Under the pieces are notes generated by a model. It was not told the DNA's origin. It saw nothing but the letters and a program-made list of their open reading frames with translations, and made no database searches. Of a DNA stretch of 64,000 bases, positions 6,001 through 63,910 are shown piece by piece (the first letter of the stretch is position 1; each line of letters begins with the position of its first letter). The translations under genes and the position numbers were made by a program. Source of the DNA: Eledone cirrhosa (Eukaryota); contig OZ024741.1 of the NCBI GenBank assembly GCA_964016885.1, positions 8,866,001 through 8,930,000 on the forward strand, given 5' to 3'.

Positions 6001-9000
6001 TCTCTGTCTCTATATCAGTCTGTCTTCCAGCCACTCTGTCTGTATATCAGTCTGTCTTCCAGCCACTCTGTCTGTATATCAGTCTGTCTTCTAGCCACAC
6101 TGTCTTCCAGCCACTCTGTCTTCCAGCCTCTCTCTCTTCCAGCCTCTCTGTCTTCCAGCCACTCTCTCTTCCATCCTCTCTGTCTTCCAGCCACTCTGTC
6201 TTCCAGCCACTCTGTCTTCCAGCTACTCTGTCTGTATATCAGTCTGTCTTCCAGCCTCTCTTCCTTCCAGCCTCTCTGTCTGTATATCAGTCTGTCTTCC
6301 TGCCTCACTGCCATCCAAACGTTCTGTCTTCCAGACTCTCTGTCTTCTAGCCTCCCTGTCTTCCAGCCACTCTGTCTGTATATCAGAATGTCTTCCAGCC
6401 TCTCTGTCTTCCAGCCACTCGGTCTTCCAGCCCCTATGTCTGTATATCAGTCTCTCTTCCAACCTCTTTGTCTTCCAGCCACTCTCTCCTCCAGCCTCTC
6501 TGTCTTCCAACCACTCTGTCTGTATATCAGTCTGTCTTCCAGCCTCTCTGTCTGTATATCAGTCTGTCTTCTAGCTTTTCTGTCTTCCAGCCACTCTGTG
6601 TTCCAGCCACTCTGTCTGTATATCAGTCTGTCTTCCAGCCTCTCTGTCTTCCAGCCTCTCTGTCTGTATATCAGTCTATCTTCCTGCCTCACTGTCTTCC
6701 AAACATTCTGTCTTCCAGGCTCTCTGTCTTCTAGCCTCCCTATCTTCCAGCCACTCTGTCTGTATATCAGAATGTCTTCCAGCCTCTCTGTCTTCCAGCC
6801 ACTCGGTCTTCCAGCCCCTCTGTCTGTATATCAGTCTCTCTTTCAGCCACACTGTCTTCCAGCCACTCTGTCTTCCAGCCATTCTCTCTTCCAACCTCTT
6901 TGTCTTCCAGCCACTCTCTCCTCCAGCCTCTCTGTCTTCCAGCCACTCTCTCTGTATATCAGTCTGTCTTCCAGCCTCTCTGTCTTCCAGACTCTCTGTC
7001 TGTATATCAGTCTGTCTTCCTGGCACTCTGTCTTCCAGCCACTCTCTCTGTATATCAGTCAGTCTTCCAGCCTCTCTGTCTTCCAGACTCTCTGTCTGTA
7101 TATCAGTCTGACTTCCAGCCTCTCTGTCTTCCAGCCACTCTGTCTTCCAGCCACCCTGTCTTCCAAGCAGTCTGTCTTCCAGTCACTCTGTCTTCCAGCC
7201 TCTCTGTCTTCCAGTCACTCTGTCTTCTAGCCTCTCTGTCTTCCAGCCTCTCTGTCTTCCAGCCACTCTGTCTTCCAGCCACTCTGTCTTCCAGCCACTC
7301 TGTCTGTATATCAGTCTGTCTTCCAACCTCTCTGTCTGTATATCAGTCTGTCTTGCAGCCTCTCTGTCTTCCAGCCATTCTGTCTTCCAACCACTCTGTC
7401 TTCCAGCCAGTCTGTCATCCAGCCACTCGGTCTTCCAGCCTCTCTGTCTTCCAGCCTCTCTGTCTACCCGCCTCTCTCTCTTTCAGCCACTCTGTCTTTA
7501 TATTAGTCTGTCTTCGAGCCTCTCTGTCTTCCAGCCACTCTCTCTTCCAATCACTCTGTCTGTATATCAGACTGTCTTCCAGCCTCTCTGTCTTCCAGCC
7601 TCTCTGACTTCCAGCCTCTCTGTATTCCAGCCTCTCTGTCTTCCAGCCTCACTGTATTCCAGCCTCTCTGTCTTCCAGCCTCTCTGTCTGTATATCAGTC
7701 TCTCTTCCAGCCTCTCTGTCTTCCAGCCACTCTGTCTTCCAGCCACTCTGTCTGTATATCAGACTGTCTTCCAGCCTCTCTCTCTGTATATCAGTCTGTC
7801 TTCCAGCCTCTCTGTCTTCCAGCCTCTCTGTCTTCCAGTCTCTCTGTCTTCTAGCCACTCTGTCTTCCAGCCTCTCTGTCTTCCAGTCTCTCTGTCTGTA
7901 TATCAGTCTGTCTTCCAGCCACTCTGTCTTCCAGTTTCTCTGTCTGTATAACGGTCTGTCTTCCAACCACTCTGTCTTCCAGACGCACTGTCTTCCAGCC
8001 TCTCTATCTTCCAGCCACTCTGTCTTCCAGCCACTCTGTCTGTATATCAGTCTGTCTTCCAGCCACTCTGTCTTACAGCCACTCTGTCTGTTTATCCGTC
8101 TGTCTTCTAGCCTCTCTGTCTTCCAGCCTCTCTGTCTGTATATCAGTCTGTCTTCCAGCCTCTCTGTCTTCCAGCCACTCTGTGTTCCAGCCAATCTGTC
8201 TGTATATCAGTCTGTCTTCCAGCCTCTCTCTCTGTATATCAGTCTGTCTTCCAGCCTCTCTGTCTTCCAGCCCCTCTGTCTTCCAGCCTCTCTGTCTTCC
8301 AGCCTCTCTGTCTTCCAGCCACTCTGTCTTCCAGCCACACTGTCTTCCAGCGACTCTGTCTTCCAGCCTCTCTGTCTTCCTGTCTCTCTGTCTCTATATC
8401 AGTCTGTCTTCCAGCAACTCTGTCTGTATATCAGTCTGTCTTCCAGCCACTCTGTCTTCCAGCCACTCTCTCTTCCAGCCTCTCTGTCTTCCAGCCACTC
8501 TCTCTTCCAGCCTCTCTGTCTTCCAGCCACTCTGTCTTCCAGCCACTCTGTCTTCCAGCTACTCTGTCTGTATATCAGTCTGTCTTCCAGCCTCTCTGTC
8601 TTCCAGCCTCTCTGTCTGTATATCAGTCTGTCTTCCAGCCTCACTGTCTTCCAGCCATTCTGTCTTCCAGACTCTCTGTCTTCCAGCCTCCCTGTTTTCC
8701 AGCCAATCTGTCTGTATATCAGACTGTATTCCAGCCTCTCTGTCTTCCAGCCACTCTGTCTTCCAGCCACTCTGTCTTCCAGCCTCTCTGTCTGTATATC
8801 AGTCTGTCTTCCAGCCACACTGTCTTCCAGCCACTCTGTCTTCCAGCCATTCTCTCTTCCAGCCTCTCTGTCTTCCAGCCACTCTCTCCTCCAGCCTCTC
8901 TGTCTTCCAACCACTCTTTCTGTATATCAGTCTGTCTTCCAACCTCTCTGTCTTCCAGCCTCTCTGTCTTCCAGCTACTCTGTCTTCCAGCCACTCTGTC

Positions 9001-12000
9001 TGTATATCAGTCTGTCTTCCTGCCCCTCGGTCTTCCAGCCACTCTCTCTGTATATCAGTCTGTCCTCCAGCCTCTCTGTTTTCCAGACTCTCTGTCTGTA
9101 TATCGGTCTGTCTTCCAGCCTATCTGTCTTCCAGCCACTCTGTCTTTCAGCCACCCTGTCTTCCAAGCAGTCTGTCTTCCAGCCACTCTGTTTTCCAGCC
9201 TCTCTGTCTTCCAGCCACTCTGTCTTCCAGCCACTCTGTCTGTATATCAGTCTGTCTTCCAACCTCTCTGTCTGTATATCAGTCTGTCTTCCAGCCCCTC
9301 TGTCTGTATATCAGTCTGTCTTCCAGCCACACTGTCTTCCAGCCACTGTGTCTTCCAGCCATTCTCTCTTCCAGCCTCTCTGTCTTCCAACCACTCTGTC
9401 TGTATATCAGTCTGTCTTCCAACCTCTCTGTCTTCCAGCCTCTCTGTCTTCCAGCCACTCTGTCTTCCAGCCACTCTGTCTGTATATCAGTCTGTCTTCC
9501 TGCCCCTCGGTCTTCCAGCCACTCTCTCTGTATATCAGTCTGTCCTCCGGCCTCTCTGTTTTCCAGACTCTCTGTCTGTATATCAGTCTGTCTTCCAGCC
9601 TCTCTGTCTTCCAGCCACTCTGTCTTCCAGCCACCCTGTCTTCCAAGCAGTCTGTCTTCCAGCCACTCTGTCTTCCAGCTTCTCTGTCTTCCATCCACTC
9701 TGTCTTCCAGCCACTCTGTCTGTATATCAGTCTGTCTTCCAACCTCTCTGACTGTATATCAGTCTGTCTTGCAGCCTCTCTGTCTTCCAGCCATTCTGTC
9801 TTCCAGCCACTCTGTCTTCCAGCCAGTCTGTCATCCAGACACTCTGTCTACCAGCCTCTCTGTCTTCCAGCCACTCTGTCTTCCAGCCTCTCTGTCTTCC
9901 AGCCTCTCTGCCTTCCAGCCACACAGTCTGTATATCAGACTGTCTTCCAGCCCCTCTGTCTTCCAGCCTCTCTGTATTCCAGCCACTCTGTCTTCCAGCC
10001 ACTCTGTCTTCCAGCCGGTCTGTCATCCGGCCACTCTGCCTTCCAGCCTCTCTGTCTTCCAGCCACTCTGTCTTCCAGACTTTCTGTCTTCCAGCCACAC
10101 TGTCTGTATATCAGACTGTCTTCCAGCCTATCTGTCTTCCAGCCTCTCTGTCTTCCAGCCACTCTGTCTGTATATCACACTGTCTTCCAGCCTCTCTGTC
10201 TACCAGCCTCTCTGTCTTACCAGCTTCTCTGTCTTCCAGACTCTCTGTCTGTATATCAGTCTGTCTTCCAGCCTCTCTGTCTTTCAACCACTCTCTCTTC
10301 CAGCCTCTCTGTCTTCCAGCCACTCTGTCTTCCAGCCACTCTGTCATTCAGCCACTCTGTCTGTATATCAGTCTGTCTTCCAGCCTCTCTGTCTTCCAGC
10401 CACTCTGTCTTCCAGCCACTCTCTCTTCCAGCCTCTCTGTATTCCAACCTCTCTGTCTTCCAGCCACTCTGACTGTATATTGGTCTGTCTCCGAACCTCT
10501 CTGTCTTCCAGCCACTCTGTCTTCCAGCCACTCTGTCTGTATACCAGTCTGTCTTCCAGCCTCTCTGTCTGTATATCAGTCTGTCTTCCAGCCTCTCTGT
10601 CTTCCAGCCACTCTGTCTTCCAGCCACTCTGTCTGTATATCAGTCTGTCTTCCAACCTCTCTGTCTTCCAGCCACTCTGTCTTCTAGCCTCCCTGTCATC
10701 CAGCCTCTCTTTCTTCCAGTCACTCTGTCTTCCAGCCACTCTCTTCCAGCCTCTCTGTATTCCAGCCTCTCTGTCTTCCAGCCACTCTGACTGTATATTG
10801 GTCTGTCTCCGAACCTCTCTGTCTTCCAGCCACTCTGTCTTCCAGCCACTCTGTCTGTATATCAGTCTGTCTTCCAGCCTCTCTGTCTGTATATCAGTCT
10901 GTCTTCCAGCCTCTCTGTCTTCCAGCCTCTCTGTCTTCCAGCCTCTCTGTCTTCCAGCCTCTCTGTCTGTATATCAGTCTCTCTTCCAGCCTCTCTGTCT
11001 TCCAGCCACTCTGTCTTCCAGCCACTCTGTCTGTATATCAGACTGTCTTCCAGCCTCTCTCTCTGTATATCAGTCTGTCTTCCAGCCTCTCTGTCTTCCA
11101 GCCTCTCTGTCTTCCAGTCTCTCTGTCTTCTAGCCACTCTGTCTTCCAGCCTCTCTGTCTTCCAGTCTCTCTGTCTGTATATCAGTCTGTCTTCCAGCCA
11201 CTCTGTCTTCCAGTTTCTCTGTCTGTATAACGGTCTGTCTTCCAACCACTCTGTCTTCCAGACGCACTGTCTTCCAGCCTCTCTATCTTCCAGCCACTCT
11301 GTCTTCCAGCCACTCTGTCTGTATATCAGTCTGTCTTCCAGCCACTCTGTCTGTTTATCCGTCTGTCTTCTAGCCTCTCTGTCTTCCAGCCTCTCTGTCT
11401 GTATATCAGTCTGTCTTCCAGCCTCTCTGTCTTCCAGCCACTCTGTGTTCCAGCCAATCTGTCTGTATATCAGTCTGTCTTCCAGCCTCTCTCTCTGTAT
11501 ATCAGTCTGTCTTCCAGCCTCTCTGTCTTCCAGCCCCTCTGTCTTACAGCCTCTCTGTCTTCCAGCCTCTCTGTCTTCCAGCCACTCTGTCTTCCAGCCA
11601 CACTGTCTTCCAGCGACTCTGTCTTCCAGCCTCTCTGTCTTCCTGTCTCTCTGTCTCTATATCAGTCTGTCTTCCAGCCACTCTGTCTGTATATCAGTCT
11701 GTCTTCCAGCCACTCTGTCTTCCAGCCACTCTCTCTTCCAGCCTCTCTGTCTTCCAGCCACTCTCTCTTCCAGCCTCTCTGTCTTCCAGCCACTCTGTCT
11801 TCCAGCCACTCTGTCTTCCAGCTACTCTGTCTGTATATCAGTCTGTCTTCCAGCCTCTCTGTCTTCCAGCCTCTCTGTCTGTATATCAGTCTGTCTTCCA
11901 GCCTTACTGTCTTCCAGCCATTCTGTCTTCCAGACTCTCTGTCTTCCAGCCTCCCTGTTTTCCAGCCAATCTGTCTGTATATCAGACTGTATTCCAGCCT

Positions 12001-13778
12001 CTCTGTCTTCCAGCCACTCTGTCTTCCAGCCACTCTGTCTTCCAGCCTCTCTGTCTGTATATCAGTCTGTCTTCCAGCCACACTGTCTTCCAGCCACTCT
12101 GTCTTCCAGCCATTCTCTCTTCCAGCCTCTCTGTCTTCCAGCCACTCTCTCCTCCAGCCTCTCTGTCTTCCAACCACTCTTTCTGTATATCAGTCTGTCT
12201 TCCAACCTCTCTGTCTTCCAGCCTCTCTGTCTTCCAGCTACTCTGTCTTCCAGCCACTCTGTCTGTATATCAGTCTGTCTTCCTGCCCCTCGGTCTTCCA
12301 GCCACTCTCTCTGTATATCAGTCTGTCCTCCAGCCTCTCTGTTTTCCAGACTCTCTGTCTGTATATCAGTCTGTCTTCCAGCCTATCTGTCTTCCAGCCA
12401 CTCTGTCTTTCAGCCACCCTGTCTTCCAAGCAGTCTGTCTTCCAGCCACTCTGTCTTCCAGCCTCTCTGTCTTCCAGCCACTCTGTCTTCCAGCCACTCT
12501 GTCTTCCAGCCACTCTGTCTGTATATCAGTCTGTCTTCCAACCTCTCTGTCTGTATATCAGTCTGTCTTGCAGCCTCTCTGTCTTCCAGCCATTCTGTCT
12601 TCCAGCCACTCTGTATTCCAGCCAGTCTGTCATCCAGCCATTCTGTCTTCCAGCCTCTCTGTGTTCCAGCCACTCTGTCTTCCAGCCTCTCTGTCTTTCA
12701 GCCACTCTGTCCTCCAACCTCTCTGTCTTCCAGCCACTCTCTCTTCCAGCCTCTCTGTCTTCCAGCCTCTCTGCCTTCCTGCCACACAGTCTGTATATCA
12801 GACTGTCTTCCAGCCCCTCTGTCTTCCAGCCTCTCTGTATTCCAGCCACTCTGTCTTCCAGCCACTCTGTCTTCCAGCCGGTCTGTCATCCAGCCACTCT
12901 GTCTTCCAGCGTCTCTGTCTTCCAGCCACTCTGTCTTCCAGCCTCCCTGTCTTCCAGCCACTCTGTCTTCCAGCCTCTCTGTCTTCCCGTCTCTCTGTCT
13001 GTATATCAGTCTGTCTTCCAGCCTTTCTGTCTTCCAGCCACTCTCTCTTCCAGCCTCTCTGTCTTCCAGCCACTCTGTCTGTATATCAGTCTGTCTTCCA
13101 GCCTCTCTGTCTTCCAGCCTCTCTGTCTTCCAGCCTCTCTGTCTTCCAGCCTCTCTGTCTTCCAGCCTCTCTCTCTTCCAGCCTCCCTGTCCGTATATCA
13201 GTCTGTCTTCCAGCCTCTTTGTCTTCCAGCCACTCTGTCTTCCAGCCTCTCTGTCCGTATATCAGTCTGTCTTCCAGCCTCTTTGTCTTCCAGCCACTCT
13301 GTCTTCCAGCCACTCTGTCTGTATATCAGTCTGTTTTCCAGCCTCTCTGTCTTCCAGTCACTCTGTCTTCCAGCCTCTCTGTCTTCCAGCCTCTCTGTCT
13401 TCCAGCCACTCTGTATGTATATCAGACTGTCTTCCAGCCTCTCTGTCTTCCAGCCTCTCTATCTTCCAGCCACTCTGTCTGTATATCAGTCTGACTTTCA
13501 ACCACTCTGTCTTCCAGCCACTCTGTCTGTATATCAGTCTCTCTTCCAGCCTCTCTGTCTTCCAGCCTCTCTGTCTGTATATCAGTCTGTCTTCCAGCCT
13601 CTCTGTTTTCCAGCCACACTTTCTTCCATCCACTCTGTCTTCCAGCCAGTCTGTCTTCCAGAAACTCTGTCTTCCCGCCTCTCTGTCTTCCCGCCTCTCT
13701 GTCTTCCAGCCACTCTGTCTTCCAGCCTCTCTGTCTTCCAGCCACTCTGTCTTCCAGCCTCTCTGTCTTCCAGCCACT
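1..13778. repeat. Satellite array, 16-bp monomer CCAGCC(T/A)CTCTGTCTT with interspersed variant monomer TATATCAGTCTGTCTT; kilobase higher-order duplications; runs off the left edge
   Basis: Continuous 16-bp periodicity read directly; identical ORF translations recur at +5887 (128/6015, 501/6388, 2295/8182) and similar ones at +9150 (2295/11445). Confidence 0.97.
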
Positions 13779-13780
13779 AT

Positions 13781-14004
13781 GGTGTTTGGAAGGGAAGTCG
13801 ATAGTTACAGTTATACTCTGGTGTATGGAATTAGCTATCTGCTGGGTGCTTTCCATCGTGCTACGTTCGAAATCAAACTTGTTAGTGCTCTCTAGTGGGG
13901 GTGTTCTTATAACTATATTGATATCGTCTACATAACGAGAGTACATGATGAGGTCTATGGAGGTCTCATTAAGGAGATCTTTAAGTCTTCTTTCCCACCA
14001 TACC
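13781..14004 (-). mobile_element. Inverted RT fragment of PLE family A (left arm of a doublet, cut off by the satellite)
   Basis: Minus strand reads MYSRYVDDINIVIRTPPLESTNKFDFERSTMESTQQIANSIHQSITVTIDFPSKH, the reverse complement of about 14260-14483. Confidence 0.92.
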
Positions 14005-14035
14005 TATAAGAGGTAGACCCCCCACCATAACCTCA

Positions 14036-15465
14036 ATGGCAAAAAAGACTCCCATGGGAAGGTGGATTGGGTGGACCAAAGCTATACGGACACCCCAAAA
14101 CAATGATCAGGTAAGAAAAATGGTCGCACATGCAATAGGGGCTAGTATCAAAACTACCCTAAAGGGCCATATATTTAAGTTCAACGAGAAGATCTACACC
14201 CAAAATGAGGGAGCATCCATCGGCGTCGGCATAGCTGGTGATGTTGCCAACCTTTTCATGGTATGGTGGGCAAGGAGACTTAAAGATCTCCTTAATGAGA
14301 GCTCCATAGACCTCATCATGTACTCTCGTTATGTAGACGATATCAATATAGTTATAAGAACACCCCCACTAGACAGCACTAACAAGTTTGATTTAGAACG
14401 TAGCACGATGGAAAGCATCCAGCAGATAGCTAATTCCATACACCAGAGTATAACTGTAACTATCGACTTCCCTTCCAAACACCCTAACAATAGACTACCT
14501 GTATTAGACACGGAACTCTGGATTAACACTATAGACGAGAGAGCCCAAATCCTCCATACACACTATGCTAAACCCATGGCCTCCAAATGCCTGATACTCA
14601 AAAACTCAGCAATGTCCAGTAGTGCTAAGTTTAATATTCTGATTGCAGATTTGGTACGAGTGATGAAGAATGTGTCCCGCATGTGCGACCCAACAGAAAT
14701 AGAAAGACACATCCAACACTTCATCAACCGCATGCAGTTCTCTGGCTACAACCAAAGAGACAGAGTCAGAGTATGCGAAGGAGCCATGGAGAAGTATAAG
14801 ACCCTCATAGAACTGGACATGAAAGGAATTTGCCCATTATACAGGAGCAAATCATGGAATAGGTTAGATAGGGCTAGACATAAGATAGGGAAAGCCACCT
14901 CATGGTACGACAACCAGAGATACCACAGTGTCATGTTTGTGGACGCTACCCCTGGAGGGAAATTAGCTAACCTGTGTAGAAAGGCCCTGAGAAAGACCCA
15001 CTTAAAAATTAAGGTGGTAGAAAAGCCAGGAACCACCATAAAATCCCTGATCAGCAAAACCTACCCTTTTAAGAAAACCCACTGTACCAGTAGGAAATGT
15101 ATCATATGTAAAATAAACCCCGGATAAACTGTAAAACTAGAAACGTAGTCTATAGCATAATATGTACAGAGGGTACTTGCAGAAACATGACAACAACATA
15201 CATAGGTGAGACAGCTCGTAGCATAGGTGAAAGGATAGACCAACACTGGGGGGAACTAAAAGGACGAAAAAACGGGTCAGTACTATACGAACATGCTAGA
15301 CAACAACATGACGGTAACATAGACAACATAGAAATTAGAATAATATCTAAACATAGAAATGACCCAGCAGATAGGCAAATAGAAATTAGAAGACCAAGAC
15401 TAAACAGAAAGTATGAATGGAATAACAACACCCAAACAAACAACACTGACCTAAGAGAAGTATAA
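14036..15465 (+). pseudogene. PLE-A RT-GIY-YIG ORF, frameshifted near 15120 and with a short deletion near 15378
   Basis: ORFs 14036-15127 (RT and linker) and 15187-15465 (endonuclease) are contiguous in the 48212-49330 copy. Confidence 0.88.
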
Positions 15466-15710
15466 ATAGGTAAATAAAATAAAATAAATAAATAAATAAA
15501 TAAATAAATACATACACAAGCACAATAACAACAAGCACATAAACACACACTAGTCACCCATCACACAGCAAACAACACTATACACACACGCAAACGCATG
15601 CGCAAAGAAGACAAAATAAAATAAACAAACAAGCAAATAAATAAATAAATATATAGACAGACTGAATAAAAATGGCGTAGACATACAATACAACAGCAGG
15701 AAAAGATAGC

Positions 15711-15752
15711 ACCACTGACGATGTTGCAGATGTGCAACGAAAGATTTATGAT
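15711..15752 (+). ncRNA. Hammerhead-ribozyme-like motif (type I, weak stem I) in the PLE-A 3' UTR
   Basis: CTGACGA-T-GTTGCA gatg TGCAAC-GAAA-gatt-TA; also at 26956-26997(-), 47889-47930(-), 49956-49997(+), 63582-63623(-). Confidence 0.6.
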
Positions 15753-15958
15753 AAACTATATATATGTGTTTGTGTCTATATGGTATCTGTATTATTTTTG
15801 ACCGTCGGTCAGTCAATGGCAACATTGAGGAGCGAGTAAGTTAGATCGCAGATATAAAAGACACAGAAGCGAGAAGCGAAAACCAACCAAACAGTGAGTG
15901 TGTTCTGTTATTAATTCTGGCAATATTACACAAATATGACCCTCCCCAAGTATAACAA

Positions 15959-16294
<336 letters not shown>

Positions 16295-20259: not shown

Positions 20260-20372
20260 GGCTTCTATAGGACTAGAACTGTTTCATTTAAAAGAAATCA
20301 TTAGGAAAGCTTTCTCTACTAATATATTGAGTACCTTACAAACTGTGGTTACGCCCGATTGAACCCGGGACT

Positions 20373-20449: not shown

Positions 20450-20829
20450 GGAAATCAGTAAAATCGAATCTCTGGCGGTTCGCAAGTGAATTCGGCCTAC
20501 TTATATGAAATGATGAGTTAGCAAAGCACTCGATAAGATAGGTCCTTAGAGTAATAACATACGTTTAAATAGCTTGACAAATCGAACATTGTGGTAGGCT
20601 AAACTAACACACAATATGTATACCAGAGCAACGATAGAACTAATCAGGTTCAGAAAAAGTATATATATATATATAAAATTATAAGTTTGAAGAATAGTCA
20701 TAAAATTTACCCAATTTTTCTTCTTACTAGAAATTAATTAGATAAATAATAATTTAAACGGATTTAAGTTTAAAAGTTTGAAGAAATAATAGATAAATGT
20801 TATCGATATATATATATATATATATATAT

Positions 20830-23201
20830 TTCGTTTCTGAATTTGTTTAGCAAGAGTCTTTATCTGAAATCGTGTGTTGAAACCGATATTGTTATACTTT
20901 GGGAGGGTCATGTTGCCAATAAGAAACACACGCATCAGTTGCTTTCACTTCAATTTATTATATATTTATAAATTTATAAATTTACAAATTTACAAACTTA
21001 TAAATTTCTGGTTGGTTGGTTGGTTCCACAACCAGATAGTTGTTTATATATAGTCATAGTCCTTTCGTCACACACTCTGTGACCTCTTCAGTGACTGGGG
21101 ATTCCTTTCCTTTGTTTCTGTGCTTTCCTTTCTTCTATCCTACGCCATTTTGTTTCTGTGTGTGTGTTGTGTGCTCAGTTTGCGCATGCGCCACATCCGG
21201 GTGTCTGTGTGTGTTTGTGTTCATTTATCTATTTGTTTATTTATTTATTTATTTATTGTTGGTTGGTTGTTTGTTCTATGTGTGTGTGTGTTTTCATTTT
21301 GTCCTGTGTGTGTTTTCATTTTGTCCTTAATTGTAAGTTGTGATGTTGCTGTTCCACTCCTATTTTCTATTTAATTTTGGTTTTAATTCTTTTATGCTTA
21401 CTGCCTCTGTAATTTGCCTAAACATTGCGTCTTTTCTGTGTGTGGATTCTATTTTTATTTCTATGTTCTCTAATCTACCCCTGTGTTCTATCTTAGCATG
21501 TTGGTAGAGCACAGATGATTCTTTATTATCTTGGAGGTCACGCAAGTGTTCATTTATTCGTTCCCCTATACTACGAGCTGTCTCACCTATGTACACTATA
21601 TTTTTGTTTCTACATTGTCCTTCCGTACATCTTATGCTATACACTACATTTCTAGTTTTACAGTTAATATGGGGGCTTATTTTACAGGTTATACATTTCT
21701 TATCTATACATGAGGGTCTTTGGAACGGGTATGTCTTGCTAATAAGTGTTTTTACGGAGGTACCTGGTCTTTCTACTATCTTAATATTGAGATTATGTTT
21801 ATTTAGGGCCCTTCTAAATTTGTAGGCTAGTTCGCCTCTAGGGGTTGTATTGATGAACATTACACTCTGGTATTTATTGCTATCATACCATGAGTTTATT
21901 CTATTGGCCTTGTTCCTAGTTCTTTCTATTCTATTCCAAAATTTGCTCCTATACAAGGGGCAGGTCCCATTTATGTCATTATTTACCATTTTTTCCCATT
22001 TGGTTCTGGCTCCTTTATACACTCTGATTCTATCTCTCTGATTGTAGCCAGAGAACTGCATACGGTGGATGAAGTGTTGTATGTGTCTCTCTAGTTCTTC
22101 GGGGTTGCACATGCGGGACACATTTCTCATCACCCGTACCAAATCCGCAATCAGTATGTTGATTTTGGTATGGTCCGAAATGGCCGAGTTTCGGTGGATC
22201 AGATGTTTGGAAGTCATGGGTTTGGCATAATGGGAATGGACGATTTGTTTTTGGTTGTTAATGGTATCTAACCAGAGCTCTGTGTCTAGTACAGGTAATC
22301 GATGGTTGGGGTGTCTACTTGGGTAGTCTATAGTAACTCTAATGCTCTGGTGGATGGAGTTTGCTATTTGCTGGATGCTTTCCATTGTTTTTTTTCTCTA
22401 GTTCCTGACTGTTCTTTAGTGGGGGTGTCTTAACTACGATGTTTATATCATCTACGTAGCGGGAGTACATTATCAGGGTTAAGCTGTCTTCTAATTGTTC
22501 TTTAAGTTTTTGTTTAAGTCTACTGTCCCACCATACCATGAATAAGTTAGCTATGTCGCCTGCAATGCTAACACCAATGGCTGCTCCTTCCTCTTGGGCA
22601 TATGTTTTACCATTAAATTTGAACATATGTTCCTTAAGGGTTAATTTTATGCTGGCCCCTACCGCATGTGCAATCATTTTCTTTAGTTCATCGTGGTTTT
22701 AGGGTGTCCGTATGACTCTGGTCCACCCGTTCCATCTATCTGTGTGGGTTTTCTTGGCCATTGAGGTAATGGTAGGTGGTCTGCTTCTTGCTGGTCTTGT
22801 AGGGCACAGGTTGCTAAGGTCATAAGTGTCTAGGTAACTATTACTATGGGTAAGCTTAAGTAGAAGTCCCAGCTCACTGGTATCAATCCCACGGAACTCA
22901 ACCTTGCTCTCGCTGATCATTTCTACGCATTTCTCCACAGCAAAATCCACGTCAATAGATGGATACAGGGACACAACATCCATACGCGCCGATTCTGCTG
23001 AGGAGGTCCTCCGTGCTGTCACACACATCTGGGGACATCTCAATGATGGGGCGTATGATCAGGGAGAGGAAATAGGACAGTCTGTAGTTACTAGCAATGT
23101 TAGCCCCACAGACTGGCCGTGTTGGTGGTCCCGCGACAGGGTCCCAGCCCGTTTTATGGTCTTTTCGAAGCCCATACAACGCCGGCACGTCATTGTTCCA
23201 G
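20830..23201 (-). mobile_element. PLE family B, left arm of a head-to-head doublet, with 57-nt 3' tail
   Basis: LYGLRKDHK..PPTRPVCGA, DVVSLYPS, EGAAIG, YSRYVDD, GIY-YIG; split over ORFs 22952-23188, 22699-23043, 22339-22677, 21360-22385 by a deletion and frameshifts. Confidence 0.95.
21052..21096 (-). ncRNA. Type I minimal hammerhead ribozyme motif, PLE-B left arm
   Basis: Reverse complement of 25181-25225. Confidence 0.75.
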
Positions 23202-23330
23202 GATGTCCCCAGATGTGTGTGACAGCACGGAGGACCCCCTCAGCAGAATCGGCGCGGGTAACCGATCTGGGGACCTAACAAACTGCATAATAGGCAGTAC
23301 GGATGTTGTGTCCCTGTATCCATCTATGAC

Positions 23331-24920
23331 GTGGATTTTGCTGTGGAGAAATGCGTAGAAATGATCAGCGAGAGCAAGGTTGAGTTCCGTGGGATTGATA
23401 CCAGTGAGCTGGGACTTCTACTTAAGCTTACCCATAGTAATAGTTACCTAGACACTTATGACCTTAGCAACCTGTGCCCTACAAGACCAGCAAGAGGCAG
23501 ACCACCTACCATTACCTCAATGGCCAAGAAAACCCACACAGATAGATGGAACGGGTGGACCAGAGCCATACGGACACCCGAAAACCACGATGAACTGAAG
23601 AAAATGATTGCACATGCGGTAGGGGCCAGCATAAAATTAACCCTTAAGGAACATATGTTCAAATTTAATGGTAAAACATATGCCCAAGAGGAAGGAGCAG
23701 CCATTGGTGTTAGCATTGCAGGCGACATAGCTAACTTATTCATGGTATGGTGGGACAGTAGACTTAAACAAAAACTTAAAGAACAATTAGAAGACAGCTT
23801 AACCCTGATAATGTACTCCCGCTACGTAGATGATATAAACATCGTAGTTAAGACACCCCCACTAAAGAAAAGTCAGGAACTAGAGAAAAACACAATGGAA
23901 AGCATCCAGCAAATAGCAAACTCCATCCACCAGAGCATTAGAGTTACTATAGACTACCCAAGTAGACACCCCAACCATCGATTACCTGTACTAGACACAG
24001 AGCTCTGGTTAGATACCATTAACAACCAAAAACAAATCGTCCATTCCCATTATGCCAAACCCATGACTTCCAAACATCTGATCCACCGAAACTCGGCCAT
24101 TTCGGACCATACCAAAATCAACATACTGATTGCGGATTTGGTACGGGTGATGAGAAATGTGTCCCGCATGTGCAACCCCGAAGAACTAGAGAGACACATA
24201 CAACACTTCATCCACCGTATGCAGTTCTCTGGCTACAATCAGAGAGATAGAATCAGAGTGTATAAAGGAGCCAGAACCAAATGGGAAAAAATGGTAAATA
24301 ATGACATAAATGGGACCTGCCCCTTGTATAGGAGCAAATTTTGGAATAGAATAGAAAGAACTAGGAACAAGGCCAATAGAATAAACTCATGGTATGATAG
24401 CAATAAATACCAGAGTGTAATGTTCATCAATACAACCCCTAGAGGCGAACTAGCCTACAAATTTAGAAGGGCCCTAAATAAACATAATCTCAATATTAAG
24501 ATAGTAGAAAGACCAGGTACCTCCGTAAAAACACTTATTAGCAAGATATACCCGTTCCAAAGACCCTCATGTATAGATAAGAAATGTATAACCTGTAAAA
24601 TAAGCCCCCATATTAACTGTAAAACTAGAAATGTAGTGTATAGCATAAGATGTACAGAAGGACAATGTAGAAACAAAAATATAGTGTACATAGGTGAGAC
24701 AGCTCGTAGTATAGGGGAACGAATAAATGAACACTGGCGTGACCTCCAAGATAATAAAGAATCATCTGTGCTCTACCAACATGCTAAGATAGAACACAGG
24801 GGTAGATTAGAGAACATAGAAATAAAAATAGAATCCACACACAGAAAAGACGCAATGTTTAGGCAAATTACAGAGGCAGTAAGCATAAAAGAATTAAAAC
24901 CCAAATTAAATAGAAAATAG
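23331..24920 (+). CDS. PLE RT + Cys linker + GIY-YIG endonuclease, 529-aa open stretch of a 5'-truncated copy
   Basis: EGAAIG, YSRYVDD, LPVLD, CIDKKCITC, NVVYSIRC..C, YIGETARSIGERINEH, H..H, LNRK. Confidence 0.9.
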   Translation: MDFAVEKCVEMISESKVEFRGIDTSELGLLLKLTHSNSYLDTYDLSNLCPTRPARGRPPTITSMAKKTHTDRWNGWTRAIRTPENHDELKKMIAHAVGASIKLTLKEHMFKFNGKTYAQEEGAAIGVSIAGDIANLFMVWWDSRLKQKLKEQLEDSLTLIMYSRYVDDINIVVKTPPLKKSQELEKNTMESIQQIANSIHQSIRVTIDYPSRHPNHRLPVLDTELWLDTINNQKQIVHSHYAKPMTSKHLIHRNSAISDHTKINILIADLVRVMRNVSRMCNPEELERHIQHFIHRMQFSGYNQRDRIRVYKGARTKWEKMVNNDINGTCPLYRSKFWNRIERTRNKANRINSWYDSNKYQSVMFINTTPRGELAYKFRRALNKHNLNIKIVERPGTSVKTLISKIYPFQRPSCIDKKCITCKISPHINCKTRNVVYSIRCTEGQCRNKNIVYIGETARSIGERINEHWRDLQDNKESSVLYQHAKIEHRGRLENIEIKIESTHRKDAMFRQITEAVSIKELKPKLNRK

Positions 24921-25180
24921 GCGTGGAACAGCAACATCACAACTTACAATTAAGGACAAAATGAAAACACACACAGGACAAAATGAAAACACACACACAC
25001 ATAGAACAAACAACCAACCAACAATAAATAAATAAATAAACAAATAGATAAATGAACACAAACACACACAGACACCCGGATGTGGCGCATGCGCAAACTG
25101 AGCACACAACACACACACAGAAATAAAATGGCGTAGGATAGAAGAAAGGAAAGGCACAGAAACAAAGGAAAGGAATCCCC

Positions 25181-25225
25181 AGTCACTGAAGAGGTCACAG
25201 AGTGTGTGACGAAAGGACTATGACT
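25181..25225 (+). ncRNA. Type I minimal hammerhead ribozyme motif in the PLE-B 3' UTR
   Basis: Stem I AGTCA/TGACT, core CTGAAGA, stem II GTCACA/TGTGAC, GAAA-ggac-TA. Confidence 0.75.
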
Positions 25226-25386
25226 ATATATAAACAACTATCTGGTTGTGGAACCAACCAACCAACCAGAAATTTATAAGTTTGTAAATTTGTAAATTTA
25301 TAAATTTATAAATATATAATAAATTGAAGTGAAAGCAACTGATGCGTGTGTTTCTTATTGGCAACATGACCCTCCCAAAGTATAAC

Positions 25387-25471
<85 letters not shown>

Positions 25472-25474
25472 TAT

Positions 25475-25871
25475 ACTGAGTATATGTTGGTTGTTTACCA
25501 ACACCTCAGTATGCAGATTGGAGCACTCGACGTAGTACGCAGGTTGGTTTGGTTACTCCGGAGTAATGTAAAATAAAGTAATTAAGTCAAATATTTAAGA
25601 TTTGGCTTCGTTTATTAAAGATGTACCGCTATATATATTTCGGTGACAGCCATCATCGGCTGTGACCTCTTCAGGCAGTTCGAATTGGTGTGGTAGAGAC
25701 AGGTACACATGTCGTTAAAGTATTTTACTCCGCAAATACTCCGATATGTCCAGCTCCTGGTTGTTATTTCTCTGAGGAACTGGAATCATATGATTCCATG
25801 TCACCGAAATATATATAGCAGTACATCTTTAATAAACGAAGCCAAATCTTAAATATTTGACTTAATTACTT

Positions 25872-25878
<7 letters not shown>
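25475..25878. mobile_element. (TA)n-anchored fold-back element: 80-bp inverted arms, hammerhead, one-sided tail
   Basis: Arms 25569-25648 and 25799-25878; extension 25475-25568 on the left only. Confidence 0.8.
25625..25679 (-). ncRNA. Type I hammerhead ribozyme motif
   Basis: ACTGC-CTGAAGA-GGTCACAGCCgatgatGGCTGTCACC-GAAA-tatata-TA-GCGGT; stem I ACTGC/GCGGT (GCAGT in the other arm). Confidence 0.8.
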
Positions 25879-25949
<71 letters not shown>

Positions 25950-26765: not shown

Positions 26766-28847
26766 AGGGGAGGGTCATATTTGTGTAATAATATTGCCAG
26801 AATTAATAAAAGAACACACTCACTGTTTGGTTGGTTTTCGCTCCTGTATCTTTTATATCAGTTAATTTAATTTATTCGGTTCTCAATGTTACCATTGACT
26901 GACCAACGGTCAAAAATACAGATATAATATAGACACAAACACATATATATAGTCTAACAAAGTTCTTTCGTTACACATCTGCAACATCGTCAGTGGTACT
27001 ATTATGTTTCCTCTTGTTGTATTGTATGTCTACGCACTCTTTATTTAATCTGTTTATTCATTTATTTATTTATTTATTTATTTATTTTATTTATTTTTGT
27101 CTACTTCTCTGCGCATGCGTTTGCGTGTGTGTATAGTGTTTGGTGTGTGTTCGTGTTTAGGTTACTGTGTTTTGGTTATTGTATTCTATCTTAGTTTACT
27201 AGTGTGTGTTTATATGTGCTTGTTCTTATTGTGCTTCTGTATGTATTTATTTATTTATTTATTTATTTATTTATTCATTTATCCTTCTCTTAGGTCAGTA
27301 TTGTTTGTTTGGGTGTTGTTGTTATTCCATTCATTTGTTTCTGTTTAGCTTTGGCCTTCTAAGTTCTATTTCACTGGCCTCTCTGATTTGCCTACCTGTT
27401 GAGTCATTTCTATGTTTAGATATTATTCTAATTTCTATGTTGTCTATGTTACCGTCGTGTTGTTATCTGACGTGTTCGTATAGTACTGAACCGTTTTTTC
27501 GTCCTTTTAGTTTCCCCCAGTGTTGGTCTATCTTTTCACCTATGCTACGAGAAGTCTCGCCTATGTATGTTGTTGTCATGTTTCTGCAAGTACCCTCTAT
27601 ACATCCTATGCTATAGACTACATTTCTAGTTTTACAGTTTATCCGGGGGTTTATTTTACATATAATACATTTCCTATTAGTACAGTGGTTTTCTTAAAAG
27701 GGTATGTTTTGCTGATAAGGGATTTTATGGTGGTTCCTGGCTTTTCTACCACCTTAATCTTTAAGTGGGTCTTTTTGGGGGCCTTTCTACACTGGTTAGC
27801 TAATTTCCCTCCACGGGCAGCGTCCACAAACATGATACTCTGGTATCTCAGGTTGTCGTACCATGAGGTGGCTTTCCCTATCTTATGTCTAGTCCTATCT
27901 AAGCTATTCCATGATTTGCTCCTGTATAATGGGCAAATTCCTTTCATGTCCAGTTCTATAGGGGTCTTATACTTCTCCGTGGCTCCTTCGTATACTCTGA
28001 TTCTGTCCCTTTTGTTGTAGCCAGAGAACTGCATGCGGTTGATGAAGTGTTGGATGTGTCTTTCCATTTCTGTTGGGTCGCACATGTGGGACACATTCTT
28101 CATCACTCTTACCAAGTCTGCGATCAGAATATTAAACTTAGCACTACTGGACATTGCTGAGTTTTTGAGTATCAGGTATTTGGAGGCCATGGGTTTAGCG
28201 TAGTGTGAGTGGAGAATTTGGGCTCTCTTGTCTATAGTGTTAATCCAGAGTTCTGTGTCTAATACAGGTAGTCTATTGTTAGGGTGTTTGGAAGGGTAGT
28301 CGATAGTTACAGTTATACTCTGGTGTATGGAATTAGCTATCTGCTGGATGCTTTCCATTGTGCTACGTTCTAAATCAAACTTGTTAGTACTCTCTAGTGG
28401 GGATGTCCTTATTACTATATTGACATCGTCTACGTAACGAGAGTACATGATGAGGTCTATGGAGCTCTCATCAAGGAGATCTTTAAGTTTCCTTTCCCAC
28501 CATACCACGAAAAGGTTGGCAACGTCACCAGCTATGCTGACGCCAATGGCTGCACCCTCATTTTGGGTGTAGATCTTCTCGTTGAATTTGAATATGTGGC
28601 CCTTTGGGGTAGTTTTAATACTAGTCTCTATTACATATGCGACCATTTTTCTTACCTGATAATTGTTTTGGCGGGTCCGTATGGCTTTGGTCCACCCAAT
28701 CCACCTTCCCATGTGAGTCTTTTTAGCCATAGAGGTTATGGAGGGGGGGGTCTACCTCTTATGGGTCTACTGGGGCAGAAACGTCTAATGTCATGGCTGT
28801 CTAGGTAGTCAGTGTCATAGGTAAGTCTAAGTAGGAGGCCCAATTCG
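26761..28847 (-). mobile_element. PLE family A copy, single arm, 5'-truncated, TA repeats on both sides
   Basis: ORF 27651-28730 is highly similar to 14036-15127; frameshift in the Cys linker; same 3' UTR. Confidence 0.93.
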
Positions 28848-28993
28848 TATATATATATACATTCCTTTGTTACATTGATTAAGGCTCGATTTTATTCTCT
28901 GAATTCTATCTTGAGCTGTTTTTAGAGACAAGACATGTGTTTGATATGTTTGATTTTGTATCATTCATGACACCCTTTACTTTGAAAGTAGTA

Positions 28994-29958: not shown

Positions 29959-30075
29959 ATAATAATAATAATAATAATAATAATATATATATATATATAT
30001 ATAGGTGCCCCAGCATGGCCTCAGCCGGATGGCTGAAACAGGTAAAAGAGTAATATATATATATAGGTAAGTTAT

Positions 30076-30190
30076 TCCGGGTTGAATCGGAGGTAACCAC
30101 AGTAAGTAAGGTACTCAATACATAGTGAGTACCTTAAGATTCTTGATGATTTCTAAAGAACACAGTTCTAGTCCTGTTGAATCTCATCTA
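30076..30190. mobile_element. Family C inverted terminal-repeat remnant between TA repeats
   Basis: Tail CCGGGTTGAATCGGAGGTAACCAC..AAGGTACTCAATAC joined to TTGATGATTTC..CAGTTCTAGTCCTG. Confidence 0.55.
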
Positions 30191-45613: not shown

Positions 45614-46199
45614 GTTGTTATAAGAAAGCAACTGTTGTTATATGAAAGTAAGTAGTTATTGTAATGAAGCAAACGTGTTGAAGAGATGAAATTAAAATAA
45701 ACTTAATGAAAAGCCGATGTTTAAAGCGACTGTGAGGTATTTCAACTGAATAGTCAACGATATTTCAACTAAATAGTCAACGATATCTCAACTAGTATTT
45801 AATGGTGCCTACAACCTCTAAATGGACAACAAACATCTGTTTTAGAAACACATTAAAACACTGAAATATGTCGACTGTACTTAAATTATCGACATTATAT
45901 TCATATGTTCATATTAAATGTACGTAAAAACACACACACACACAGAGGCACACACACATACACACACGCACAGAGGCACACGCACACATACATACACACA
46001 CACAGTGGCAAACACGAACTCACGCACGCATATATATATTTATGTATATACATCTATATATATATGTATATATATATATTTATTTATTTATATATATATA
46101 TATTTATACATATATCTATACACACACATGCACACACACACACATATATATACATGTCTATATATATTATCTATCTCTATATATATGCAGAGGTTATAT

Positions 46200-46544
46200 T
46201 TAATTTGTTGGGATTCAACAAGCTTAAACATTTTTATAACTGATATAAAGCACTCAACAAATTAGTGGAGTAAATATAGAATATATTAACAAATGGAAAC
46301 TATATTTATAAAACCATATTTATTTTATTATACATATTTCAAGGGCCACCAAGGCAAATTATGGTGCGCCTTCATCAGATAAAATACAATGCAGATTTGT
46401 TTTATAAATAAATATTTATTTATAAAACAAATCTGTATTGTATTTTTACTGATGAAAGAGCACCATAATTTGCCTTGGTGGCCCTTGAAATATGTATAAT
46501 AAAATAAATATGGTTTTATAAATATAGTTTCCATTTGTTAATAT

Positions 46545-46547
<3 letters not shown>
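46200..46547. mobile_element. 268-bp near-perfect palindrome with two back-to-back hammerhead motifs and a left-side tail
   Basis: Arms 46280-46413 and 46414-46547; CTGATGA-stem-GAAA-tatg-TA at 46441-46506(+) and 46321-46386(-). Confidence 0.85.
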
Positions 46548-46642
<95 letters not shown>

Positions 46643-47399: not shown

Positions 47400-49329
<1,930 letters not shown>

Positions 49330-50264
49330 AACGTAGTCTATAGCATAAGATGTACAGAGGGTACTTGCAGAAACATGACAACAACATACATAGGTGAGAC
49401 AGCTCGTAGCATAGGTGAAAGGATAGACCAACACTGGGGGGAACTAAAAGGACGAAAAAACGGGTCAGTACTATACGAACATGCTAGACAACAACATGAC
49501 GGTAACATAGACAACATAGAAATTAGAATAATATCTAAACATAGGAATGACCCAGCAGATAGGCAAATCAGAGAGGCCAGTGAAATAGAAATTAGAAGAC
49601 CAAAGCTAAACAGAAAGAATGAGTGGAACAACAACAACACCCAAACAAACAACACTGACCTAAGAGAAGTATAAATAAGTAAATAAAATAAAATAAAATA
49701 AGATAAATAAATACATACACAAGCACAACAACAACAAGCACATAAACACACACTAGTCACCCAGCAGACACAACACTATACACACTAGTCACACATCACA
49801 CATAACACTATACACACACGCAAACGCATGCGCAAAGAAGACAAAATAAAATAAGATAAACAAACAAGCAAATAAATAAATAAATATATAGACAGACTGA
49901 ACAAAAAAAAAATGGCGTAGACATACAACACAACAGGAGGAACAATGAATATAACACCACTGACGATGTTGCAGATGTGCAACGAAAGATTTATGTAAAT
50001 TATGTAAACTATATATATGTGTTTGTGTCTATATTGTATCTGTATTATTTTTGACCGCCGGTCACTCAATGGCAACATTGAGGACCGAGTAAGTTAGATC
50101 GCAGATATAAAAGACAGCGAGAAGCGAAAACCAACCAAACAGTGAGTGTGTTCTGTTATTAATTCTGGCAATATTACGCAAATATGACCCTCCCCAAATA
50201 TAACAATATCTGTTTCGACACACGATTTCATATAAAAAACCTCGCAAAACTAATTCATCGCCGC
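49330..50264 (+). mobile_element. PLE family A, right arm of the doublet with 56-nt tail
   Basis: Reverse complement of 47678-48558 plus extension 50209-50264. Confidence 0.95.
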
Positions 50265-50380
50265 TATATGTATATATATATACGTAAATAAGACTGTTAT
50301 GGCTGCAACCAGTATACTAACCATAACTACCCTTAATATACATACATATGCATTACATATATATATATACACTATATCAC

Positions 50381-53752: not shown

Positions 53753-53756
<4 letters not shown>

Positions 53757-53944
53757 AAAAGAGTCAGGACCCCGACGGCTGAGCTCCGGCCGTTTCGCCA
53801 GCTAGATCCGGATCTAGCTGGCGAAACGGCCGGAGCTCAGCCGTCGGGGTCCTGACTCTTTTCCTATTACCCACTCTACTACCCTAAGTATCGAGTACTC
53901 TGGTGCGTTATGGTCCACATGGTTACTTACCACACTTCCTTCGT

Positions 53945-53946
<2 letters not shown>
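53753..53946 (+). mobile_element. 114-bp perfect GC-rich palindrome plus 80-nt tail in (TA)n (family D)
   Basis: 57-bp arms with no mismatch and no loop, centre ATCC|GGAT at 53809/53810; relative at 60711-60862. Confidence 0.88.
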
Positions 53947-53982
<36 letters not shown>

Positions 53983-60710: not shown

Positions 60711-60713
<3 letters not shown>

Positions 60714-60858
60714 CGAAGGAAATGTGGTAAGGAACCAGGTGGACCATAACGCACCAAAGTACTCAATACTTAGGGTAGTAGAGTGGGTAATAGGAACAAG
60801 TAAGACCCGAATTAGCCGTCGAAACGACTTGAGCTCAGCCGTCGGGGTCTTACTTGTT

Positions 60859-60862
<4 letters not shown>
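60711..60862 (-). mobile_element. Family D fold-back: 80-nt tail plus ~20-bp inverted arms, in (TA)n
   Basis: TAGGAACAAGTAAGACCCGA ... TCGGGGTCTTACTTGTTCCTA; tail homologous to 53867-53946. Confidence 0.85.
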
Positions 60863-60898
<36 letters not shown>

Positions 60899-61358: not shown

Positions 61359-61405
<47 letters not shown>

Positions 61406-61407
<2 letters not shown>

Positions 61408-61517
61408 AATACACGCACATTTAAAGAAGGTACTCAATACATAGGTAGAGTATAGACATTTTTATTATATATAGAAAGGACTTCTACAGGACTAGAACTG
61501 TTTCATCCGTATGAAAC
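61406..61517 (-). mobile_element. Family C terminal-repeat remnant
   Basis: Minus reads GAAACAGTTCTAGTCCTGTAGAAG..AATAAA..TACTCTACCTATGTATTGAGTACC. Confidence 0.6.
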
Positions 61518-61579
61518 CAAAATGTACAAAGCTGTATTTTTTAGGCTTTTAGAAGCGTTGAGAATATATGTATGTGTAT

Positions 61580-62955: not shown

Positions 62956-63910
<955 letters not shown>

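Follow-up and report, generated by a model that had tools for sequence, protein, structure and literature searches.

The tail is a described feature of PLEs (available portions of PMC8557442, PMC3846280 and PMC11167929). In canonical EN+ PLEs it is an extension of the pseudo-LTR (pLTR), often present at one end, on inverted 5'-truncated copies, as it is in the two families analyzed here (PMC8557442 and PMC3846280, as far as available). For the anole PLE, the tail was found in vitro to be the stretch between two RT start sites, and in that assay the use of the start sites was the same on both strands (PMC11167929, available part). In the available portions of PMC8557442 and PMC11167929, the choice of internal start sites and the reason why insertions are inverted and one-tailed are left as open questions. 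Searches of literature accessible without subscription gave no account of a bulged tail hairpin or count of tail asymmetry, and the available part of a preprint (bioRxiv 10.64898/2026.07.22.740005) makes no mention of tails. In the window, by which we mean the whole stretch of 64,000 nucleotides analyzed, copies of families A and B carry tails that correspond to codons 9-28 of the element's own ORF. Such tails are found on one arm of nearly all inverted insertions (57 of 59), and they are likely to represent RNA between two fixed RT start sites.

The tails and their reading frame

The A and B copies in the window are arms of fold-back insertions. In the family A insertion, a 5'-truncated tailed arm (49329..50267, + strand) adjoins a tailless arm (47677..49329, - strand) that meets (TA)n at ORF nt 26. 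The tail occupies 50210..50267 (+), corresponding to ORF nt 27-84 (codons 9-28), with its final three bases common to the (TA)n flank; this copy is 100% identical to nt 1-84 of a family A copy that reads through. Directly 5' to it, 50184..50209 (+) holds the ATG and codons 1-9 of the ORF within the pLTR, and nt 23-26 of the ORF (ATAT), inside this segment, are the tailless end (site 1). The family B insertion has a tailed arm at 20826..23202 (-), with the tail at 20826..20885 (-; ORF nt 27-86, codons 9-29) and the ATG at 20911, and a tailless arm at 23202..25391 (+) that contains a 552-codon frame with RT and GIY-YIG (23262-24920, +). A third tail, at 63335..63388 (-), belongs to an A-type subfamily copy that extends beyond the window; it covers ORF nt 27-80, meets (TG)n and has its ATG at 63414. 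These are the three tails that an earlier note on this DNA had located, with the letters that it gave. Two other family A arms lie at 14002..15961 (+), which is tailless, and at 26767..28848 (-), which ends early, at about ORF nt 12.

The terminus ATGACCCTCCC..TATAACAATA precedes all three tails. Seven termini were listed in the window, three of them tailed, and the terminus also stands tailless at six places that are additional or truncated. A putative minimal hammerhead core, with the core letters and helix II present, lies about 200 nt before each terminus: in the family A pLTR at 49960..49987 (+, about 200 nt upstream of the ATG), in the tailed and tailless arms of family B at 21063-21091 and 25186-25214, and in the A-type subfamily copy at 63592-63619 (-). 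An Rfam search over the window, these cores included, gave no match at the gathering score. Positions 1-13780 of the window, which adjoin a truncated family A arm, form a C/T-skewed tandem region of 51% GC with an open-frame pattern recurring at a 5887-nt offset. PLE families were often nested in each other's TA-rich ends or pLTRs (loci L011, L093, L098, L154, L181 and others).

The earlier note had taken the tail of coding PLEs for a terminal extension that is fixed and functional, which is supported, but it missed that the tail is itself protein-coding. The tail consists of codons 9-28 of the RT-GIY-YIG frame of the element, the ATG of which lies 25 nt before the tail. The ATG that opens the terminus leads into uninterrupted frames in two family B copies, of 1269 and 1266 aa. 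The tail translates as IGFNTRFQIKNLAKQIQKRN in family B and as 20 aa in family A. It had been asked whether the tail equals the sequence following the 5' pLTR in full-length copies, and it does: in 8 of 20 regions fetched around long B copies there is an upstream pLTR whose tail continues into the ORF, and the same read-through is seen in family A. The full-length elements are organized as pLTR-ORF-pLTR units of 4.1-4.3 kb (4189-4334 nt in family B; 4147 nt in a partial tandem of family A). One 14-kb family A insertion (L151-L152, G000 C1:14381677-14395781) has three head-to-tail 4147-nt units with a common frame break and is closed by a short inverted tailed arm, an arrangement consistent with the copying of a single RNA over more than one unit length. 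A search of the 3.0-Gb genome for exact matches to the 25-nt terminus gave 45,396, against 0 for the control.

The closest named homologue of the protein is from Octopus vulgaris (66%), and there are 80 full-length homologues. Pfam searches with coding fragments gave RVT_1 at E 1.6e-4, below the curated cut-off, and GIY-YIG at E 3.5e-5, above the cut-off in one fragment; a scan of the full-length protein gave no RT or GIY-YIG match. When the translation was read against the criteria in the available part of PMC8557442, a CX4CxxC linker before GIY-YIG and a CCHH motif in the endonuclease were recognized, and by these motifs the A/B PLEs appear to be of the Neptune/Nematis type. Their single ORF with RT and C-terminal GIY-YIG, their pseudo-LTR tandems and their inverted 5'-truncated copies are those of canonical EN+ PLEs. 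The family B ORF (L091:960-4766, -) has, at residues ~245-475 between the PKF motif region and the RT, a variable low-complexity insert of ~230 aa rich in Asn, His and Thr. Most frameshifts fall within this insert, which is reminiscent of the N-rich inserts found in Penelope elements of Adineta (PMC3846280, available part).

The A and B tails had been described as alike in fold and different in sequence. They are in fact 77% identical over codons 9-28, and 19 of 22 residues are identical in codons 1-22. Nor is CACACGATTTCA, once thought invariant, fixed at the nucleotide level: its Arg codon is CGA in 92, CGT in 32 and CGC in 1 of 125 tailed copies, so that 33 carry synonymous variants. In the one A/B comparison made, which has low power because it is a single codon comparison, there was no excess of synonymous-site conservation in the tail relative to the rest of the ORF. 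Among shared residues, identical codons number 12/18 in codons 1-22 and 280/524 in the rest of the ORF; 84 of 282 comparable ORF windows are at least as conserved as codons 1-22; and four-fold sites are identical at 2 of 5 positions in codons 9-28 against 94 of 189 elsewhere. A second A copy gave nearly the same figures. Coding accounts by itself for the A/B conservation of the tail and for its 'invariant' core, and this conservation appears to reflect mainly protein constraint.

Seven distant homologues align from the equivalent Met, and four of them have a word like [FY][NDS][TS]R; a homologue search with residues 1-245 found none, relatives being reached through the RT region alone. Fourteen metagenome loci were too distant for tail alignment, and no tail boundaries could be drawn from them. 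Double non-consensus codons were also used to look for diverged families, an approach that was abandoned: of its 91 matches, the 30 that were read were mostly mutated A/B copies, with a close family C also among them. The fetched loci also contain pieces of PLE families more distant from B (24-30%), at least three in number (L068/L257, L177/L256 and L224/L246), whose tails were not found there.

End points and the one-tail asymmetry

We classed 212 termini from 116 merged segments (688 kb), 77 of family A, 126 of family B and 9 of neither. Family A ends are found mostly at ORF nt 26 (27 cases) and nt 84 (29 cases); by class, 31 lie at nt 24-29, 10 at nt 67-71 and 32 at nt 80-85, and 4 read through. 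Family B ends are concentrated at nt 26 (52 cases) and nt 86 (51 cases), with 54 at or before nt 26, 55 at nt 83-87, 4 between these classes and 13 reading through. End points are clearly non-random, and in this respect the fixed tail of the earlier note was confirmed, but the length of 55-57 nt given for it was too narrow. The tail measures 56-60 nt, depending on how the shared TA bases are counted, and the minor class at nt 67-71, to which 10 of 42 tailed A ends belong, gives a tail of 41-45 nt. The latter is near the usual PLE tail length; family B is without this class.

The insertions sit in (TA)n, with ends at about nt 22-26 (site 1) or nt 81-86 (site 2), and (TA)n follows 82 of 87 site-1 ends and 84 of 92 site-2 ends. 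Contigs from public runs have loose ends in (TA)n at nt 26 (X6 and X9) and at nt 86 (X6, X9 and X10), and a loose end at nt 71 was seen in X6.

Tails are distributed asymmetrically between the arms of an insertion. Sixty-eight candidate inverted pairs were collected, and 9 of these, 7 of them one-tailed, were removed for low coverage or mixed family. In the remaining pairs, which are of the same family and fully covered, one tail is present in 57 of 59. Because some of the loci had come from tail searches, a recount was made on a hand-defined subset chosen blind to the tail, in which all 41 pairs have one tail. The tail can be on the long arm or the short arm alike. Genome-wide there are 22,968 tail cores, about half of the 45,396 termini, although different patterns were used for the two counts.

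Microhomology with the target was considered as the cause of site choice and rejected. The internal ATATA of the A tail is used as an end 23 times, compared with 1,803 site-2 ends for a single A haplotype. By eye, 10 of the first 100 listed A site-2 ends continue past the shared TAT with a templated G. Since the best internal TA word is hardly used and the G is templated, the sites appear to be set by the position of the protein rather than by pairing; a limited amount of pairing is conceivable, given the TA bases common to the target and both ends. TATATG was also tried as the continuation in family A and discarded (its patterns gave 2 and 3 matches, and it was present once among the first 100 listed ends). 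A 12-mer resembling the tail, found in long copies 1 kb before the RT, proved to be a chance ORF match.

Start sites and the candidate bulged stem

In the explanation that we favor, a read-through RNA, either tandem or hammerhead-circularized, would carry the first codons of the ORF at its 3' end (from the available portions of PMC11167929 and PMC4209133). The PLE protein, probably as a dimer, would nick both strands of the (TA)n target, after which the two target 3'-OH ends would be extended from different sites, one from site 2 and one from site 1. Both cDNAs would stop early and join head to head, leaving a fold-back with one tail, and the start sites would be determined by protein position rather than by pairing. 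The 2 of 59 pairs that carry two tails stand against this two-site model, and the equal use of start sites in the anole assay means that strict one-tail asymmetry is not predicted by that assay alone. The step with least support is the last that might be added, namely that a bulged stem acts as the docking signal for site 1.

It is almost an even possibility that no RNA structure is involved. The block would then be simply the N-terminus of the protein and the stem a by-product, with the sites arising from single-stranded sequence or from the distance to a signal deeper in the ORF. The lack of excess synonymous conservation agrees with this, as does the preservation of the motif as amino acids in distant homologues, and in the anole the RNA that is needed extends far beyond the start sites, to ORF nt 172 (PMC11167929, available part). 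The folding results point the same way. The common fold proposed in the earlier note survives insofar as its seven named pairs form in all three window tails, and in 10 hand-picked subfamily copies 70 of 70 cells pair, but no stable structure is predicted. Folding z-scores of the single tails (+1.48, -0.18 and +1.53) are no better than those of shuffles, the named pairs have probabilities of at most 0.05 in 90- and 150-nt contexts, the bare stem has +0.5/+2.1 kcal/mol, and RNAalifold gave no consensus pairs for the 10 hand-picked copies. An absence of structure is harder to reconcile with the codon-shuffle nulls and with an offset from site 1 that is shared with a truly covarying motif of other families, both of which bear on a second reading.

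According to this second reading, the tail holds a bulged hairpin (4 bp, a 2-nt 3' bulge and 3 or more bp) that is bound and stabilized by the PLE protein and sets site 1 five to six nt upstream, as a counterpart of the ACUC/GAGU motif overprinted on coding sequence. It is compatible with the two-site explanation, to which it adds a signal, and we consider it conceivable but somewhat doubtful. The candidate stem, which is predicted and unstable alone, pairs 50212-50218 with 50242-50244 and 50247-50250 in family A (+; bulge 50245-50246), and in family B it lies at 20883-20845. As had been noted, it begins 3 nt after TATAACAATA in the three window tails, and its middle pair (34-60) changes: it is G-C in 36, A-U in 79 and G-U in 10 of 125 ungapped tailed copies, and A-C in none. 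Where subfamilies differ at codons 10 and 23, the changed positions lie immediately beyond the stem, and the short family A tails stop just 3' of its closing pair. The exact stem descriptor common to A and B tails was found in 0 of 39 other 60-nt ORF windows (4 of 39 with G-U and no compensation). In codon-order shuffles the exact descriptor was found in 0-1 of 1000 with Watson-Crick pairs and 4-8 of 1000 with G-U, and a broad descriptor in 2-12 and 24-55 of 500, respectively. These nulls of 0.4-11%, depending on the descriptor, are not clean p-values, since the descriptor was fitted after the sequence had been seen. Moreover, the protein fixes most stem bases, five of the seven pairs are invariant, and the single pair that holds all of the covariation is matched by 22 of 500 shuffles. 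Stem compatibility was also judged by eye from the amino acids of homologues; the outcome was mixed and was set aside. Taken with their limits, the modeled comparisons suggest that a stem of 4 bp, a 2-nt 3' bulge and 3 bp can form in the tail above chance. That this stem is a docking signal that sets site 1 is put forward tentatively.

The ACUC/GAGU motif itself is genuine in other tailed families. In its inner stem, 116 of 138 pairs form with a 2-nt bulge, compared with 28-51 with other bulges, in a sample of 46 distinct motifs from 122 copies, of which related ones are non-independent. The earlier note had tied this motif to the A/B protein. This link does not hold, because the largest ACUC/GAGU family, D, with 18,213 exact tail matches, encodes an RT-GIY-YIG protein of its own, of Hydra type. 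In family D (L247:2780-6050, G000 C1) the end reads through into a 5' UTR and then a 719-aa frame; the tail is 80 nt and non-coding, and a canonical-looking hammerhead lies just before the tailless end. The protein, its translation read against the available part of PMC8557442, has DKT, a CxCX5C linker and CxxC plus CxH; Pfam gave no match to it. With the short ORF, these motifs, the canonical hammerhead and (TA)n targets of the Hydra clade, family D is, judged by its sequence, an autonomous Hydra-type PLE. Its copies in the window are at 53755-53950 and at 60713-60863, the latter a fold-back (60713..60863, -) with the motif at 60761-60784, and 50 of 52 family D inverted pairs have one tail. 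At least five more sequence-unrelated families have ACTC-stem-YY-GAGTRC in their tails, with strong covariation of the inner stem, and no ORF was found in the stretches of them that were read. In the window, families of this kind occur at 20263-20368, 20450-20690, 25450-25880, 30060-30190, 46190-46550 and 61403-61520. For one ACUC-type window copy, a 27-nt pattern with one mismatch allowed found no relative.

The outer stem of the A/B tail, GUUU/AAAC, has the same purine/pyrimidine pattern as ACUC/GAGU with different letters, only one of the four outer pairs being identical, and the family D and B proteins are 22% alike over 277 aa; both differences count against a common hairpin. The distance from the tailless end to the stem is 2-6 nt in A/B (40 of 57 pairs), a range that is wide because of the shared TA bases, 5-8 nt in D (41 of 50) and 4-6 nt in G (2 of 2), and the common 5-6 nt are also included in E (3 of 7 pairs) and F (5 of 8). 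The modal offsets of A/B, D, G and part of E and F therefore meet at 5-6 nt, which keeps the idea of a shared signal alive. We infer a possible equivalence of the A/B and ACUC/GAGU stems from these comparisons, and a hairpin signal that crosses clades is a tentative suggestion, more doubtful than not. It is a rather speculative extension that distant PLE clades share one RNA docking hairpin 5-6 nt downstream of the first RT start, bound by a dimer that would start the two cDNAs on opposite target strands, one 5' and the other 3' of the hairpin, and so lead to one-tail fold-backs; similarly speculative is the view that this hairpin would lie in free 5' UTR RNA in Hydra-type elements (ACUC/GAGU) and in codons 10-23 in A/B.

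An origin of the tail at the DNA level is improbable. In this scheme, the endonuclease would make two staggered cuts, separated by ~60 nt, to resolve a cDNA intermediate that is tandem or circular, and the tail would be the recognition sequence of the enzyme. One tail per insertion would likewise result, and there are precedents in the resolution proposed in PMC8557442 and in the D. virilis tail required for endonuclease recognition (as cited in PMC11167929; both in available part); both ends are also TA-like words of the type that the enzyme cuts. Against it, genomic tail ends in the anole coincide with mapped RT start sites (PMC11167929, available part), the better TA word that lies within the A tail hardly ever serves as an end, and the extra templated G is not a TA cut site.

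Comparison with described PLEs

Compared with canonical EN+ PLEs, the A/B tail is longer (56-60 nt, with the minor 41-45 nt class, versus 30-40 bp in the available sources), its asymmetry has been counted, at 57 of 59, and ~45,000 exact termini are present in one genome. In Adineta Pen2a, the first 12 codons are in the pLTR, or 22 with the tail, and there are Asn-rich ORF inserts too (PMC3846280, available part). The Anolis carolinensis Poseidon element, PAc, resembles A/B in having the tail in the 5' region of the ORF, downstream of a hammerhead (putative in A/B), in its AT-rich targets and in two start sites bounding the tail, which in A/B are presumed; its initiation without need for homology and its predicted dimer protein would be further likenesses. 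PAc initiates at ORF nt 111-118, within what is called an 'AC-rich stem loop', whereas in A/B the ends fall at nt ~22-26 and ~81-86; the ATG of PAc overlaps its hammerhead, whereas the A/B core is ~200 nt upstream. By eye, the anole RNA has hairpins with 3'-side bulges at ~+51-99 and ~+121-147 (for PAc and this RNA, available part of PMC11167929). The A/B protein has the CX4CxxC linker of the Neptune/Nematis type, which Penelope/Poseidon elements are without (PMC8557442, available part).

Family D and the other ACUC/GAGU families share with A/B the (TA)n targets, the hammerhead (putative in A/B) and the one-tail fold-backs, and the candidate A/B stem has their topology of 4 bp, 2-nt 3' bulge and stem at a compatible offset. 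Family D differs in its 80-nt tail within the 5' UTR, its fixed ACUC/GAGU letters and covarying inner stem, and its separate 719-aa protein with DKT and CxCX5C. Like the minimal type I hammerheads of PLE pLTRs, A/B have the CUGAnGA core, a long helix II and GAAA (PMC4209133, available part); the core, putative from its letters, is in the pLTR, outside the tail.

Families A and B, with young copies numbering in the tens of thousands that end sharply at two sites, an almost perfect asymmetry, intact natural ORFs and a candidate hairpin, make both the two-site, two-strand model and the hairpin accessible to a small set of RNA mutants. Without a functional hairpin, the finding reduces to a PLE tail of the ordinary kind, somewhat long and located in coding sequence. 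In either case, tails of this kind are known from PLEs; the families that carry them here are new and very abundant, and coding offers an explanation of their conservation.
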